Shown: piece by piece, positions 9,464-22,872 of the stretch | Numbering within the stretch: position 1 is the first letter of the stretch | Layout of the letters: the number at the start of each line of letters is the position of its first letter | Assembly: GCA_963665235.2 (NCBI GenBank) | Contig: CAXXLX010000001.1 | Location: 4,300,705 to 4,364,704, forward strand | DNA: 64,000 nt | Direction of reading: 5' to 3' | From: Candidatus Poribacteria bacterium | GTDB taxonomy: Bacteria > Poribacteria > WGA-4E > WGA-3G | Translations under genes and position numbers: made by a program | Notes under the pieces: generated by a model | Databases searched by the model: none | The model's input: the letters and a program-made list of their open reading frames with translations, nothing else | Told to the model about the DNA's origin: nothing

Positions 9464-9521
9464 GCGGGCCGAAGTATTGTGTTATCTTTGAAAGAGCATT
9501 CGCAATACACATCTTGCCCGC
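9464..9521 (+). ncRNA. Short Y RNA (YrlB-like) copy 2
   Basis: GCGGGCCGAAGTATTGTG ... CGCAATACACATCTTGCCCGC. Confidence 0.8.
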
Positions 9522-9569
9522 CACCGATTTATAACTGAAGAATTTAAGGTGAAAATATAGGGAGGAACA

Positions 9570-9958: not shown

Positions 9959-10933
9959 ATGCGCACCCTTTTTATTATCAGCATACTCTTCATCAGTATC
10001 GTGCCCGTTGCCTCCGCAAAAATCGTGTGGATGGCGTTCTGGGAAATCTGTGTCATGGACGATGATGGCAGCAACCGCCAAAGATTGACACATAATGATC
10101 GCTATGACACGAAACCACGCTGGTCACCCAATGGAAAGTGGATCGTTTTTCAGGGCGAACAACCTAAGGAAACCAATGAACAAAATCATGATCTGTTCCT
10201 CATGAATATAGATGGAACACAGATACGGAAACTTACCACCTACACAGGGCTTGATGTAAATCCAGACTGGTCCCCCGATAGTCAACACATAGTCTTTACA
10301 AGTACGCGAGGTGATGTGACGAGTCTTCATATCCTGGATGTTGAGACACAAGATGTCCGCGACCTCACGCGCACCCTAAAGGGGCAGGCCGCGGATAGCG
10401 CGGCTTGGTCTCATGATGGGAAACAGATTGCCTATGTAGGCAAGACTCTAAACCCCTTCACATCCGCCATCTACATCATAGGGGCAGATGGTAAAAACCC
10501 ACGTGCCCTCTTCCGCCCCGTGGTTGCACAGTACCATTCTCCCGACTGGTCGCCGGATGGGAAACATATTCTGTATGGCGAAAAAAAAGCCGTAGGCAAA
10601 ATGCGGATTTCAGATAAAATCGTCATTCGCACCGTTAATGGGAATTTGGTAAAGGAATTAGAAATGCCGGCGCTTGCGAAATGGTCAATACAAGCCGCTT
10701 GTTGGATGGGGACGAAACATGTTCTCATTGATGCCATAGAAGACTTCAAAGCCGCTGATGGGGGGCAGAGTGATATCTATCGGTATACACTATCCACCGA
10801 TGAAATCGTCAATCTCACGAAATCAGATAGAACTAACGACGGTTTTCCGGATTGGATAGATGATGGGGCACTAGCTGTTTCTCCTGTGAGCAAACTCGCC
10901 ATCCGATGGGCACAACTCAAGCAAATCCATTAA
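9959..10933 (+). CDS. Secreted TolB-like (PD40 repeat) beta-propeller protein
   Basis: PRWSPNGK, PDWSPDS and PDWSPDGK repeats; C-terminal AVSPVSKLAIRWAQLK motif. Confidence 0.85.
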   Translation: MRTLFIISILFISIVPVASAKIVWMAFWEICVMDDDGSNRQRLTHNDRYDTKPRWSPNGKWIVFQGEQPKETNEQNHDLFLMNIDGTQIRKLTTYTGLDVNPDWSPDSQHIVFTSTRGDVTSLHILDVETQDVRDLTRTLKGQAADSAAWSHDGKQIAYVGKTLNPFTSAIYIIGADGKNPRALFRPVVAQYHSPDWSPDGKHILYGEKKAVGKMRISDKIVIRTVNGNLVKELEMPALAKWSIQAACWMGTKHVLIDAIEDFKAADGGQSDIYRYTLSTDEIVNLTKSDRTNDGFPDWIDDGALAVSPVSKLAIRWAQLKQIH

Positions 10934-10955
10934 GACAGTATCACAACTAAGAAGG

Positions 10956-11399
10956 TTGATTAACAGTAGCAAAAAATCTGTGTTTTTCAGAACATAAGCT
11001 TATGTTACTAAACCTTTTAGGCAATTAAACGTCTAAATTAATGTTTTACATCTGAATGTTCCGCGTTGTGAGTTGTGTTACTTAAACACCATGTACAGAG
11101 TGCTTAGCGGGCATCCGCCCAATGTTTGCCTGGGTGGGCACAACCTCTGACAACGAAAGTAGCGAAAACCAAGCTTTGATGGAAATAGCAGGCGGAAATT
11201 GTGATAAAAACCTGCTTGGTAGTGTGACTTCGAAGCACGTAAAAAACATCGAACCTTCACAGAAGAAGCAATAAGCGTTCGCTGCCTTGTGTAGCGAACT
11301 TTGGGAGATGACCCCTGGCTGTATTCGTACAGCTTGCAAAACGTGTGTGGAAGTGAAATACATAGTATTCCACGGAAATATACAGTTTAATATCATCGG
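10956..11399 (+). mobile_element. ORF-less ~444-bp structured element, copy 1 (putative non-autonomous IS607-like)
   Basis: Second copy at 11782-12718; both begin (A)TTGATTAACAGTAGC after GG and end ATATCATCGG; covarying hairpins between the copies. Confidence 0.7.
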
Positions 11400-11504
11400 T
11401 AACTGATGCCAACACTCACCCAACTGCGCGATGATGCGTTTTCAGCGTCCCAAGAGGCACATAACCGCATGAAACGGGAGATGGCTATCTACAAAAATGA
11501 ACTT

Positions 11505-11636
11505 AATTCTGGGTCGCGGGGATGTGTTACCGGGTCGCAGGTTCGACTCCTGCCAGTAGACCGAGCGTCATGCGAAGCCTACTGTAGCTCAGTGGTAGAG
11601 CACAATATTCAACGCATTCTGTTCTTATCCAGAATT
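11505..11636 (+). ncRNA. YrlA-like Y RNA copy 3
   Basis: AATTCTGGGTCGCG / CTTATCCAGAATT (compensatory change relative to copies 1-2); same T-arm, acceptor-like stem and D-arm. Confidence 0.85.
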
Positions 11637-11642
11637 TTATTT

Positions 11643-11730
11643 GGCGGGCCGAAGTCCTACGTTAACTGCCCGTATAGTAATACACAAAGTGTATCTATAC
11701 TTAAATATCGTAGTACACACCTTGCCCGCT
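11643..11730 (+). ncRNA. Short Y RNA (YrlB-like) copy 3
   Basis: GGCGGGCCGAAGTCCTACG ... CGTAGTACACACCTTGCCCGCT. Confidence 0.8.
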
Positions 11731-11781
11731 GCCTTAAAAAAACGTTAAAAATATAAACCAAACTTAAACTCTGGGTCGAGG

Positions 11782-12718
11782 ATTGATTAACAGTAGCAAA
11801 AAACCTCTATTTTTCTAGGAACATAAGCTTATGTTCCTAAACCTTTTTGAGAACTTGACATACTCTCCCAGCTAAAGCAAGGGAGATTCTTTTAAAAAGT
11901 TCCGCTACGCGTTAGCTATTGGATTGTGGTTTTCAGACGTGTGAACGTCAACGGAGATGCTTGGGCTGTTCCAAGTCTTACTGCCCCTAACTCAAAGGAA
12001 TGCCCTTCGTGCTTCGCACCTTCTTTATGCGTTGTGAATCAGTGCTTTGGTATCCAATGCAGCATGACCCGTCTTTTGGATACCGAAAGCATTGCACAAA
12101 AATGTGGATATTGACTGGGTATCGCCAGAACATCAGCACACAACCCTACCATAGGTTGAGGTTCGGAACTTCAACATTGGTGGCGTTGAAGGTGGTAATC
12201 CGAACCACTGATGATATATATATTATACCACATTTTAATGCAAAAGTCAAATTAAAATTTTAGCTCATGCGCCGCTACTACATCCCCCAGCTAAAGCACG
12301 GGGGTTTTGTAGCGGAAGACTTGATAAATTTATGTTTTTAATGTTTTACATCTGAATGTTCCGCGTTGTGAGTCGTGTTACTTAAACACCATGTACAGAG
12401 TGCTTAGCGGGCATCCGCTCAATGTTTGCCTGGGTGGGCATGACCTCTGACAACGAAAGTAGCGAAAACCAAGCTTTGATGGAAATGAGAGGGCAAAGAA
12501 AACGTGAAAAAACCTCTCTGGTAGTGTGACTTCGAAGCACAATAAAAACCTCGAATATTCACAGTATAAGCGTTCGTTGCCTTGTGTAGCGAACTTTGGG
12601 AGATGACCCCTGGCTGTATTTATACAGCTTGCAAAACGTGTATGGAAGTGAAATACCTAGTGTTCCACAGGCTTCAGGCTACAAGCCTGCTCTTCAATAT
12701 ACAGTTTAATATCATCGG
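11782..12718 (+). mobile_element. ORF-less structured element, copy 2, inserted in Y RNA 4 and carrying a nested MITE
   Basis: Colinear with 10956-11399 once 11855-12323 is removed. Confidence 0.7.
11855..12323 (-). mobile_element. Non-autonomous IS200/IS605 derivative (no tnpA or tnpB) with promoter and omega-RNA-like 3' end
   Basis: Both ends nearly identical to those of the TnpB element 58362-59770 (TTAT|CAA..AAAA-hairpin left end; GAAT-hairpin..TCAA right end); TTGACT-17-TATAAT at 12250-12222. Confidence 0.85.
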
Positions 12719-12823
12719 CGCACATCATCGGAAGCAAGCAGGTTCGACCCCTGCCGGCGCACTTGTGTTTGACGCGCAAGTTTGCCGAGCAATGTCCGCT
12801 GTTTCTTATCCAGAGACACATTT

Positions 12824-12890
12824 GGCGGGCCGAAGTCCTACGTTAACCTATATTTATCCCATATAACCCGTAGGACACACCTTGCCCGCT
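12824..12890 (+). ncRNA. Short Y RNA (YrlB-like) copy 4, directly upstream of rsr
   Basis: GGCGGGCCGAAGTCCTACG ... CGTAGGACACACCTTGCCCGCT. Confidence 0.8.
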
Positions 12891-12910
12891 ACATTTCAAA
12901 AGGTGACATC

Positions 12911-14557
12911 ATGAGCTATTTAGGGAAATATTCTCCATTGCATCCACATCAGCGGCAGCCGTTGGACGAAAAACAGGTCCAAAATTCTGCCGGCGGATAC
13001 GCCTATCCTGTCTCTATCTGGACAAACTTAGACCGGTTTCTCATTTTAGGGACCGAAGGCGGCTCCTATTACGCCACAGAACAGGATTTGACGAAGGTCA
13101 ATGTCGATGCTGTCAAGCAGTGCATTGCCGAGGATGGGGTTCAAGTTGTTGAGCGGATACGTGAGATTTCTGTCTCCGGGCGCGCCCCGAAAAATGACCC
13201 CGCATTATACGCACTAGCCCTTGCCTTTACCCATGGCGATACGGCAACGAAACGAAAAGTGGAAGAGGTCTTCTGTGATGTCGCACGTATCGGCACACAC
13301 CTATTCAACTTTGTGGTGTTTGTAGACGGTATGCGTGGCTGGGGCAGGTCGCTACGCCGATTAGTCGGCAACTGGTACCGCACGAAGGACGATAACACCT
13401 TGGCGTATCAGGTCCTGAAATATCAATCTCGGAACAGTTGGCGGCATGCGGATGTCCTTGCAAAGTGCCACTACGGTGAAAACCGGGGCATCTACCGTTG
13501 GATAAAAGGGCTTGACACGGATAAGCGTATTGTGCATCGCACCCTACAAAATGAAGAAAAGACAGCTACCGTTTACGAGGCCACCGACGCTTTGCCTGAA
13601 TTGCTCGCCGGATATGAGGACCTGAAACGCACAGAGAAACGCGTGGATGTTATCCAGCTCATTGAGAAACATCAATTCACCCACGAAATGGTGCCGAACG
13701 AGTGGAAAAATGAAACGGAAGTATGGGCGGCGTTGCTACAGAACATGCCCGTTATGGCAACGGTGCGAAACCTCGGTAAGATGACGCAAATCGGGTTGTT
13801 GAAACCTTTTGGAGCAGAGGTTCAAACCGTGCTAGAAAGACTCTCCGCTGAGGCGATTCAACGTTCGCGCATCCATCCTATCCAAATCCTTATGGCGTTG
13901 ATAACATACAAGGCAGGTAAGGGAGTGAGAGGCAGCTTAACCTGGGAGCCCGTGCCGCAGATTGTTGATGGGTTGGACGCTGCGTTTTATATGGCGTTCG
14001 ATAACGTTGAACCGAGCCAAAAGAACACGCTCCTAGCACTTGATGTCTCTGGGTCAATGGCAGGCAGAACTGTGGCAGGATGTGAAGGCTTAACACCGCG
14101 TAATGCGTCCGCTGCCATGGCACTCGTAACCGCACGCACGGAACCGCATTATCATATCTTCGGGTTTTCAGAAGGTTTTGTGACCCTGCCGATTACAGCA
14201 AACGATACGTTGGATAGTGCTATTAAAGCTGTCTCTGGATTGCCCTTTGATGGCACCGATTGCGCTCTCCCCATGCTGTATGCATTGGAACATAAACTAC
14301 AGATAGACACCTTCGTCATCTATACAGATAATGAAACGTGGTATGGCGACATTCATCCGAAAACAGCATTGGACAACTATCGGCAAAAGATGGGGCGACC
14401 CGCAAAGTGTGCTGTTGTCGGGATGGTGGCGAACGACTTCTCTATCGCTGACCCAGAGGATGCGGGCATGCTCGATTTTGTCGGGTTTGATACCGCTACA
14501 CCTGCATTGCTCAGTGATTTCGCTAAAGATGCAGACATCTCCGATGAAACGGCGTAA
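12911..14557 (+). CDS. rsr: Ro60-related TROVE domain RNA-binding protein (Rsr)
   Basis: NSAGGY, LDRFLILGTEGGSYY, RGWGR, KYQSRNSWRHAD TROVE motifs; vWA MIDAS DVSGSM, GTDC, YTDNETW; ATG 12911 with AAAGGTGA SD. Confidence 0.95.
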   Translation: MSYLGKYSPLHPHQRQPLDEKQVQNSAGGYAYPVSIWTNLDRFLILGTEGGSYYATEQDLTKVNVDAVKQCIAEDGVQVVERIREISVSGRAPKNDPALYALALAFTHGDTATKRKVEEVFCDVARIGTHLFNFVVFVDGMRGWGRSLRRLVGNWYRTKDDNTLAYQVLKYQSRNSWRHADVLAKCHYGENRGIYRWIKGLDTDKRIVHRTLQNEEKTATVYEATDALPELLAGYEDLKRTEKRVDVIQLIEKHQFTHEMVPNEWKNETEVWAALLQNMPVMATVRNLGKMTQIGLLKPFGAEVQTVLERLSAEAIQRSRIHPIQILMALITYKAGKGVRGSLTWEPVPQIVDGLDAAFYMAFDNVEPSQKNTLLALDVSGSMAGRTVAGCEGLTPRNASAAMALVTARTEPHYHIFGFSEGFVTLPITANDTLDSAIKAVSGLPFDGTDCALPMLYALEHKLQIDTFVIYTDNETWYGDIHPKTALDNYRQKMGRPAKCAVVGMVANDFSIADPEDAGMLDFVGFDTATPALLSDFAKDADISDETA

Positions 14558-22540: not shown

Positions 22541-22818
22541 GAAAAAACCCTCCCGTTCCAAAACTGGAGACGAGAAGGCTCTATAAGATTACCTTACCGT
22601 GGTACCACTCCAATTCCCGTTCTCATTTTTTCACTGAGAAAGGGCACTCTTGGGGATGCGATAACGGGCATCACACCGGCTAACCCTACACAACAACCCA
22701 TGCCTTCGGATTAGCAGCTCCAGGGCGACCTTCAGTCGGTAGCACTTGAGGAAACCTCTCAGCCTACGAATTTCCTTCTCTGACAAGCCGAGCCGACTTA
22801 CTCCTCCCCTTCAACGCT
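22541..22818 (-). promoter_or_regulatory. T-box riboswitch leader of ilvBNC (probable GUC Val specifier) with intrinsic terminator
   Basis: Minus strand: AGTA, AGAGA and GCTGAGA stem I motifs, GAAG-GTC-G specifier loop, CCGTTATC, T-box AATTGGAGTGGTACCACG, terminator CCTTCTCGT...ACGGGAGGGTTTTTT. Confidence 0.9.
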
Positions 22819-22872
22819 TTTTTTGTAAATTTAATTCAACGTGTTACTAAAAATTGTGTTTCCTTTTTTTAA

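Follow-up and report, generated by a model that had tools for sequence, protein, structure and literature searches.

Two gene-less IS607-type elements in a Poribacteria genome probably join a TnpB guide-RNA scaffold to an additional structured RNA domain

What is a highly structured repeat that encodes no protein, occurs twice upstream of the Ro60 orthologue rsr and has the ends of a mobile element? The question is posed by a 64,000-nucleotide stretch of a Candidatus Poribacteria genome (assembly GCA_963665235.2, contig CAXXLX010000001.1, positions 4,300,705 to 4,364,704 of the forward strand; below, the window), in which an initial annotation made from the letters alone had pointed out two copies of an element without open reading frames (ORFs) and had likened it to insertion sequences (ISs) of the IS607 family. 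Our results support a model whereby both copies, hereafter copies 1 and 2, belong to a gene-less derivative of an IS607-type element that is mobilised in trans, comparable to a MITE (miniature inverted-repeat transposable element), and whose RNA would consist of the guide scaffold of TnpB and an added 5' domain, here called D1. We hold this reading to be very likely.

Both copies were found where they had been placed, by reading positions 10500-13300 and with a repeat finder (Table 1), and they share the termini gg/TTGATTAACAGTAGC ... TAATATCATCGG/, slashes marking the element boundaries. The repeat finder pairs 11038-11186 with 12338-12486 at 97% identity over 149 nt. Two further blocks of 103 and 64 nt agree at 94% and 83%, respectively, while identity is 87% in the first 38 nt and 100% in the last 23 nt. 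Neither terminal inverted repeats (TIRs) nor target-site duplications (TSDs) are present at the junctions of either copy, as had been noted before and as comparison of the junctions bears out; "MITE-like" is therefore used here for small and non-autonomous only, and not in the strict sense of an element with TIRs and TSDs from a DDE transposase. The expectation of a GG core dinucleotide at every junction held in part: copy 1 has GG on both sides and copy 2 on the right, but the left core of copy 2 is GA. The palindrome reported near the left end is present in both copies, and the version in copy 2 has a terminator-like score on the + strand. In a global alignment, copy 2 differs from copy 1 by a ~473-nt block between the left end and the conserved interior and by a 21-nt hairpin at 12670-12690; the extra hairpin previously ascribed to copy 2 thus exists, but the main gain in length stems from the block, which is a separate, nested repeat.

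Table 1. Coordinates of the two elements and of the features around them, numbered from the first letter of the window.
Feature	Position	Strand	Description
Copy 1	10956-11399	+	444-bp ORF-less IS607-type element; left flank ...AAGG, 3' terminus ATCGG; ends common with full-length IS607
Left end	10956-10988	+	33 nt common with full-length IS607; would be recognised by TnpA(S)
Palindrome AACATAAGCTTATGTT with a T-run after it	10991-11006	+	Specific to copies 1 and 2; copy-2 equivalent at 11822-11837
D1, 5' structured RNA domain	11044-11175	+	~110-130 nt; start TTTTACATCTG; helix of 11073-11079 with 11137-11143; covariation (helices 1-4)
OmegaRNA scaffold core (putative)	11176-11399	+	~224 nt; TTGATG (11176-11181) pairs with terminal CATCGG (11394-11399); hairpins S1-S6 inside
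3' flank of copy 1	11400-11420	+	Would-be guide of the copy-1 omegaRNA, as predicted by the established layout of TnpB/omegaRNA systems
5' stem strand TCTGGGTCGAGG of the YrlA-like Y RNA nearest to rsr	11770-11781	+	Severed from the body by copy 2
Copy 2	11783-12718	+	936 nt, same element with nested insertion; left core dinucleotide (11781-11782) GA, not GG
Nested non-autonomous IS200/IS605-type element	~11855-12327	-	473 nt; subterminal hairpins TCTCCCAGCTAAAGCAAGGGAGA and TCCCCCAGCTAAAGCACGGGGG
D1 and omegaRNA scaffold of copy 2 (putative)	12344-12718	+	Includes the 21-nt hairpin 12670-12690
Remainder of the split Y RNA module	12719-12900	+	T-arm-like GCAGGTTCGACCCCTGC, 3' stem ATCCAGAG, hairpin GGCGGGCCGAAG...CACCTTGCCCGC
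rsr (Ro60 orthologue)	12911-14557	+	Downstream neighbour; Pfam TROVE 1.2e-35, Ro60 vWA 2.1e-61

When copy 1 was compared with the whole assembly by BLAST, its first 33 nt and last ~100 nt matched places ~1.8 kb apart, and seven IS607 loci of 1.8 kb (A-G) were recovered, the longer versions with tnpA(S) and tnpB that the initial annotation had proposed to look for; locus F lies on contig C3 and has a flank identical to that of C. All seven contain an ORF of TnpB length (412-549 aa as listed, the listed starts extending upstream into tnpA). The upstream ORF, tnpA, is preceded by only ~50 nt in the full-length copies; it measures 195-201 aa in A, B and G, is shortened to 102-113 aa in C/F and E, and is apparently fused to the long ORF in D. 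In copy A the upstream ORF is an IS607-family serine transposase (NCBIfam NF033518, 174.7 bits against a cut-off of 110; Pfam Resolvase, 4e-18, with a MerR-type helix-turn-helix), and the long ORF is TnpB (NCBIfam NF040570 guided_TnpB, 117.6 bits against a cut-off of 100; Pfam OrfB_IS605, Cas12f1-like TNB and HTH_OrfB), whose nearest relative in the PDB by sequence is the TnpB-like protein L79 (9b0l, E 4.6e-23). Short and full-length elements agree with 94-97% identity over the 33 nt of the left end (10956-10988 against C1:873918-873950 and C1:1061746-1061778) and with 78-92% over 74-128 nt at the right end; their termini are alike, gg/TTGATTAACAGTAGCAAAAAA ... AGGTTAATATCATCGG/, and all seven left flanks recovered in this genome read RAGG.

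Because the copies share their ends with 1.8-kb elements that carry tnpA(S) and tnpB, we assign them, on the strength of sequence, to gene-less derivatives of IS607-type elements, which upholds the earlier suggestion of a non-autonomous IS607-like element; TnpA would bind the 33-nt left end. No relic of a TnpA or TnpB protein was found in either copy by tblastn, the best match (E 0.09 over 18 aa) falling at the very end of tnpB. The alternative offered in the initial annotation, that TTGAT is a target motif of the ISDra2 type, was rejected, as the motif lies inside the conserved left end and the flanks are RAGG. Separately, contig C3:1-5037 repeats C1:1027959-1033085 around IS607 copy C, with genes and flank alike; the repetition is either real or was introduced by the assembly.

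In an alignment with copy A, positions 233-444 of copy 1 (~212 nt) match its final ~240 nt, which comprise the end of tnpB plus 74 nt past its stop, in the orientation of the tnpB strand and abutting the right boundary. This is where TnpB elements encode their guide-RNA scaffold (bioRxiv 10.1101/2023.11.20.567912; PMC11061315), and from this homology we identify the 3' part of both copies as an omegaRNA scaffold. Its hairpins are compensated between copy 1 and copy A, as in GTTCGCTGC/GTAGCGAAC against GCACGC/GCGTGC. Those listed in the initial annotation (AGCAGG/CCTGCT against GAGAGG/CCTCTC, GTTCGCTGC/GTAGCGAAC, GGCTGTA/TACAGCT and AAAC(G)TGT../..ACAGTTT) are real and covary across relatives, the first of them being S1 of the scaffold (AGCAGG, 11187-11192, with CCTGCT, 11211-11216). 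The view of an element made almost wholly of structured RNA is supported as well, with the correction that only the 3' part (~212-224 nt) corresponds to the scaffold, the 5' part being D1, which is specific to ORF-less elements. The 21-nt hairpin of copy 2 recurs in five of the seven full-length loci (A, B, C, F and G) and is absent from D, E and copy 1. RNA from copy 1 is predicted to bind TnpB and to guide cleavage of a target-adjacent motif (TAM) plus flank.

Shorter derivatives also occur. In genome G013 an ORF-less IS607 derivative of 275-277 nt (loci L014 and L030) shares the ends but retains just the 3' ~130 nt of the scaffold and lacks D1, so that the minimal natural form is shorter than the copies in the window. 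In addition, solitary diverged IS607 right-end fragments lie at C1:458742-458839 and C1:2331780-2331802, with no ORF or left end nearby; the former has kept compensated hairpins and adjoins a fragment of the IS200/IS605-type repeat that is also nested in copy 2.

The fold was assessed in a structural alignment of eight elements that runs from the conserved TTTTCTATCTG word to the right end. RNAalifold gives 54 pairs, 32 of which have both sides changed in at least one sequence with pairing kept; 92.5% of the cells at these pairs are paired, whereas shuffles give 76.8 +/- 1.2, none of the 500 attaining the observed value, and sliding the 3' partners by 1-3 columns gives 33-46%, a contrast that is inflated for a reason given below. 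The core is closed by a helix of UUGAUR with the last six bases, YAUCGG. A further helix, AAAC../..GUUU, encloses the last hairpin and changes from A-U in five rows to C-G in three, and the same switch separates AGTTTAA from AGGTTAA right ends. Between copies 1 and 2, 12 substitutions fall at paired positions and touch eight pairs, all of which remain paired, four by two-sided changes and four by changes to or from G-U; such G-U pairs are compatible only with RNA transcribed as the + strand.

In agreement with the initial annotation, which could assign the RNA to no named family, Rfam covariance models (RAGATH-18 and the group I intron had been suggested) gave no match at the element. With cmscan at the gathering score nothing was found there, the sole listing in the window being a T-box leader at 22563-22823 (- strand, 110.1 bits, gathering score 93). 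At E<=10, a search of 3 kb returned only a YrlA-like match (11507-11637, 36.4 bits, cut-off 69) and a chance snoRNA, and a search of the 465-nt element alone only two noise matches on the other strand. The group I intron model RF00028 by itself, run genome-wide at E<=10, gave four weak matches of 11-20 bits, none of them in the window.

D1 is the part of the copies that the full-length elements do not explain. Smith-Waterman comparison of positions 34-232 of copy 1 with three full-length IS607 elements was not significant against shuffles; in the best case 2 of 300 shuffles scored as high and the matched place was non-collinear, and a likeness between the D1 loop and a stretch of tnpB codons was dropped on these grounds. 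BLAST of positions 34-295 against 173 genomes of the class returned only chance-level matches of 25-34 nt. A signature taken from this unexplained interior, TTAG-N6-TCCGNNCAATGTT-N6-GGTRGG, matches copies 1 and 2, one place in G033, five in G119 and three in G121 among 176 Poribacteria genomes, where the reverse-pattern control has 0 matches (a further match in G054 has two mismatches and is probably due to chance). D1 is thus seen only in ORF-less elements and in 4 of these 176 genomes. A degenerate form of the signature (TTWG…), applied to one genome for each of 185,579 species, recovered only the same Poribacteria records, and it matched nothing in the metagenome collection; the exact D1 22-mer is absent from the genome-contig and metagenome-contig collections searched. 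In copy 1, CGGGCA (11108-11113) pairs with TGCCTG (11127-11132) to close the conserved loop TCCGCCCAATGTT, and across the family the stem of this hairpin occurs in three fully compensated versions (CGGGCA/TGCCTG, TCGGTG/CACCGA and CCAGCG/CGCTGG) around one loop, TCCGYYCAATGTT. D1 is under selection for its fold. A second D1 type (G033a/G027a), which MAFFT mis-registers against the first, has only its five known copies among 112 family genomes.

Our best guess is that D1 is a 5' accessory of the guide RNA that helps with its stability, its processing or the loading of TnpB, and that it would stand in for a part that in autonomous copies lies inside the tnpB reading frame. We think it unlikely that D1 is a new functional RNA module of gene-less IS607 only, be it a self-processing or self-removing, ribozyme-like RNA or a device with which the element captures TnpB that other copies produce; if it were, we would be dealing with a separate parasite of IS607 centred on RNA and not with mere deletion derivatives.

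Copies of this kind are not confined to the window. Right-end matches were found in 4 of 60 related genomes, at 18 loci, nine with tnpA and tnpB upstream, one with a tnpB fragment and eight with neither. A search for more copies, which the initial annotation had recommended, yielded relatives without ORFs, 275-461 nt long, in five further genomes of Poribacteria (G033, G027, G013, G119 and G121); they form families of ~275, 392, 442 and 461 nt with RRGG flanks and the terminus ATCGG. A sister family in G119/G121 comprises eight near-identical ORF-less copies of ~447 nt at eight different sites, from which we conclude that elements of this design have been mobile in the recent past.

The insertions have a characteristic setting. 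Just upstream of a start codon lie 14 of 36 sites, compared with 9.7% of 8000 random RAGG sites; by genome, the figures are 7 of 10 here and 5 of 18 and 2 of 8 in relatives. Frequently, an IS607-type insertion lies 5-16 nt before the start of an ORF of at least 100 aa in the same direction, splitting a Shine-Dalgarno (SD)-like RAGG from the ATG, as in copies A, B, D and E of this genome (G000) and at loci L017, L019, L027, L029, L031, L072 and L076. The preference for RAGG, SD-like sites fits the IS607 TAMs AGGAG and GAGGG given in the accessible part of a published study (PMC13565253), which the target of copies 1 and 2 resembles. The initial annotation had proposed that excision of copy 1 restores the SD and ATG of an ORF starting at 11406. 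The target is indeed SD-like at many sites of the family, but the ORF in question (11406-11756, 116 aa, starting 6 nt past copy 1) has no Pfam match, overlaps a YrlA-like RNA and is probably not a gene.

The insertion of copy 2 can be traced in relatives. Matches to the rsr locus came from 34 of 111 family genomes, these 34 belonging to a single genus, and the rsr-proximal Y RNA module, which copy 2 splits in the window, is uninterrupted in 12 of the 12 relatives inspected, two of which read CTCTGGGTCGAGGGAATG.... Moreover, RNA-library contigs from two runs of one study (X7 and X8) join 11780 to 12717. The X7 contig is 386 nt long, has 180 nt on its shorter side and differs from the window by 23 letters and 3 gaps (~6% diverged), and it therefore comes from another, related strain; the X8 contig has 21 nt on its shorter side and is flagged unreliable. 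The simple reading is that the joined contig represents an allele without the insertion, a less likely one that the element was removed from the RNA. Both the earlier claim that excision of copy 2 restores the 5' stem of the Y RNA and the call for empty sites thus found their answer. The empty allele reads TCGAGGGCGCAC, and the skip is 936 nt, not 937; since the empty form has GGG, so that GAG-GG-TTGATT would be expected where GAG-GA-TTGATT is observed, the A at 11782 is most plausibly a G of the left GG core that has mutated. Mismatched cores abolish excision, according to the accessible part of one report (bioRxiv 10.1101/2023.11.20.567912), and with its GA/GG mismatch copy 2 has probably become immobile. 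The TAGCTCAG..GGTAGAGC box, kept by 12 of 12 relatives, is missing from the body of the split Y RNA, and this loss fits a gene that died once the insertion had occurred. At copy 1, homology of the related-strain contigs stops exactly at 10955, and none of them shows a joined form. Run X5 has no contig over 11022-11317 and a 96-nt contig that ends at 10988, a gap that we leave uninterpreted.

The split module belongs to a tandem array of Y-RNA-like modules upstream of rsr (9501-9533, 11507-11741 and 12719-12901). Each consists of a YrlA-like, tRNA-like part followed by the separate hairpin GGCGGGCCGAAG...CACCTTGCCCGC, which resembles a Ro-binding stem; the YrlA-like match named above is the best in the array and falls under the Rfam cut-off, and relatives have one to several modules.

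The 473-nt block inside copy 2 has a history of its own. From its ends and its relatives we identify it as a non-autonomous IS200/IS605-type element that landed in an AT-rich linker of copy 2. The genome holds at least nine other full copies, ORF-less and 473-510 nt long, together with dozens of shared end fragments (the family is also represented at G000 C1:63021-65434, L036), and the ends common to nine copies are TTGACATAC... and ...GACTTGATAA. Relatives of ~1.4 kb encode only a 400-aa TnpB, on the opposite strand, with no TnpA nearby, and a strong minus-strand promoter-like site lies within the nested element at 12250-12222. The element is of the same kind as palindrome-associated transposable elements (PATEs), gene-less derivatives in which the ends of an IS with TnpB and its right part, coding for the RNA, are retained. 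PATEs move via an HUH TnpA that acts on single-stranded hairpin ends beside AT-rich motifs, whereas copies 1 and 2 have IS607 serine-recombinase ends with a GG core.

In our model, copies 1 and 2 have kept both ends needed for recombination (left, 33 nt; right, ~25-100 nt) and the ~224-nt scaffold, have lost tnpA and tnpB, and carry D1, a domain missing from autonomous copies. The TnpA(S) that the resident 1.8-kb copies encode would act in trans on the common ends and excise a circle, which would re-insert at RAGG sites by crossover at the GG core, a reaction consistent with junctions that have neither TSDs nor TIRs. Transcription of the + strand would then produce D1, the scaffold and, as the guide, the 3' flank. 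TnpB supplied in trans may load this RNA and cut the rejoined RAGG-plus-flank donor after excision, whereupon recombinational repair would restore the element. As for copy 2, it inserted at GAGGG in the 5' stem of the Y RNA nearest to rsr, thereby splitting the gene, and the nested IS200/IS605-type element arrived later.

Several points weigh against this model. We infer the transcript ends, the binding of TnpB and the transposition of copies 1 and 2. The genome has two copies, ~10% apart, in one 1.8-kb locus, and here they may be ancient and no longer active. For D1 no counterpart is known, and its role is a guess. The structure that was tested came from the same eight rows, three of them near-identical, which inflates the contrast with the controls. 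The scaffold is neither RAGATH-18 nor another Rfam family (RAGATH-18 being assumed to be present in Rfam 15), and a promoter scan found no sigma-70-like + strand promoter inside copy 1. Finally, the RNA-library contigs over 11124-11185 (depth 11096-11185) derive from diverged copies and are no evidence for expression of copies 1 and 2, and their depth cannot be ranked.

Among other explanations, the one that fares best, though we judge it quite improbable, is that of an ORF-less, IStron-like element whose RNA removes itself from host transcripts, through a group I intron or through D1 acting as a new ribozyme, so that insertion into a Y RNA or between an SD and the start codon would do no harm. 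The junctions look like those of group B IStrons as described in the accessible part of a survey (PMC4227781), the enrichment of sites before start codons reported above would suit such an element, and D1 is conserved and structured and has no assigned role. The element itself shows no match to a group I intron either in the genome-wide search or in the cmscan of the element; D1, at ~110-130 nt, is too short for the usual P3-P9 core, and its covarying helices include no P3/P7-type pseudoknot; and the short stretch before tnpA in the full-length copies holds no intron. The RNA contigs join the flanks of copy 2 exactly, as self-removal would demand, but the joined contig comes from another strain that possibly lacks the insertion, and the split Y RNA has lost its conserved box, as a dead gene would.

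Very unlikely, in our estimate, is that the copies are inert relics, with D1 and the pre-scaffold region as neutral remnants of a parent element now extinct and with an RNA that serves no function today. The small number of diverged copies at a single locus, the core mismatch and nested insertion of copy 2, the lack of a good internal promoter and the presence of D1-type elements in just 4 of 176 genomes would all sit well with decay. Neutral drift, however, is hard to reconcile with eight of eight changed pairs between the copies that are still paired, four of them by double changes, with the fully compensated stem versions of the D1 hairpin around one conserved loop, or with the near-identical copies of the sister family, which mean that the design has recently moved. 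Local tandem duplication of a repeat-plus-Y RNA unit without transposition, to which the location of both copies in one Y RNA array and the recurrence of module pieces at similar spacing might point, is extremely improbable and was rejected, because the flanks of the copies are unrelated on both sides and the copy-2 site is empty in relatives; moreover, copy 2 lies inside a module and copy 1 lies 107 nt upstream of one, and 1.8-kb IS607 copies at other places in the genome are delimited by the same ends.

The proposed trans-mobilised IS607 derivative without genes has close precedents. Much of what we describe is already known separately: IS607 and its GG targeting, the guide RNA, laboratory-made gene-less mini-elements, ORF-less IStrons and IS200/IS605 derivatives. 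In the accessible part of the work on the Clostridium botulinum IStron, a gene-less mini-IS is excised in trans and GG cores are required (bioRxiv 10.1101/2023.11.20.567912); as in the IS607 family and that mini-IS, the copies have a GG core after a G-rich motif, neither TIR nor TSD, a right end in CGG and a scaffold that abuts the right boundary, and movement of an ends-only version in trans, demonstrated for the mini-IS, would apply here by analogy. Unlike the mini-IS as described there, they are natural ORF-less copies, carry an extra D1 that their autonomous partners lack, contain no detected intron and reside in a Poribacteria sponge symbiont. The reRNA derived from RAGATH-18, which serves the IS607 TnpB of ISFba1 in the accessible part of Ren et al. 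2024 (PMC11061315), is likewise a long scaffold of several stem-loops (187 nt there, ~224 nt here), whose 5' part pairs with the guide-proximal region and which goes with a G-rich TAM. It differs in that the present scaffold has no RAGATH-18 match and overlaps the end of tnpB, whereas the reRNA is described as coding-independent, and in that the TnpB here is closest in the PDB to L79. Group B IStrons, including the ORF-less BcISt1 (Tourasse et al. 2014, PMC4227781), resemble our copies in the accessible part of that survey by insertion after GAGG, AGGG or TGGG, a first base U, a last CGG, ORF-less copies of a few hundred nucleotides and an IS component of the IS607 type; they differ by their group I intron core, none being detectable here, and the IStrons given there come from Firmicutes and Fusobacteria only. 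In the open-access literature we found no description of a natural ORF-less IS607 family that retains the whole scaffold and adds a conserved structured domain.

Cas12 descends from TnpB and its guide RNA, which now serve as compact tools for genome editing. A natural gene-less IS607 element with a full scaffold would mean that RNA alone can persist as a selfish unit on TnpA and TnpB supplied from elsewhere. The family would also offer ready-made scaffold variants, among them four versions of D1 and numerous compensated stems, with which to find out what parts of the RNA TnpB needs. Lastly, copy 2 would provide a clean natural case of a mobile element that inactivates one Y RNA of an array beside Ro60.

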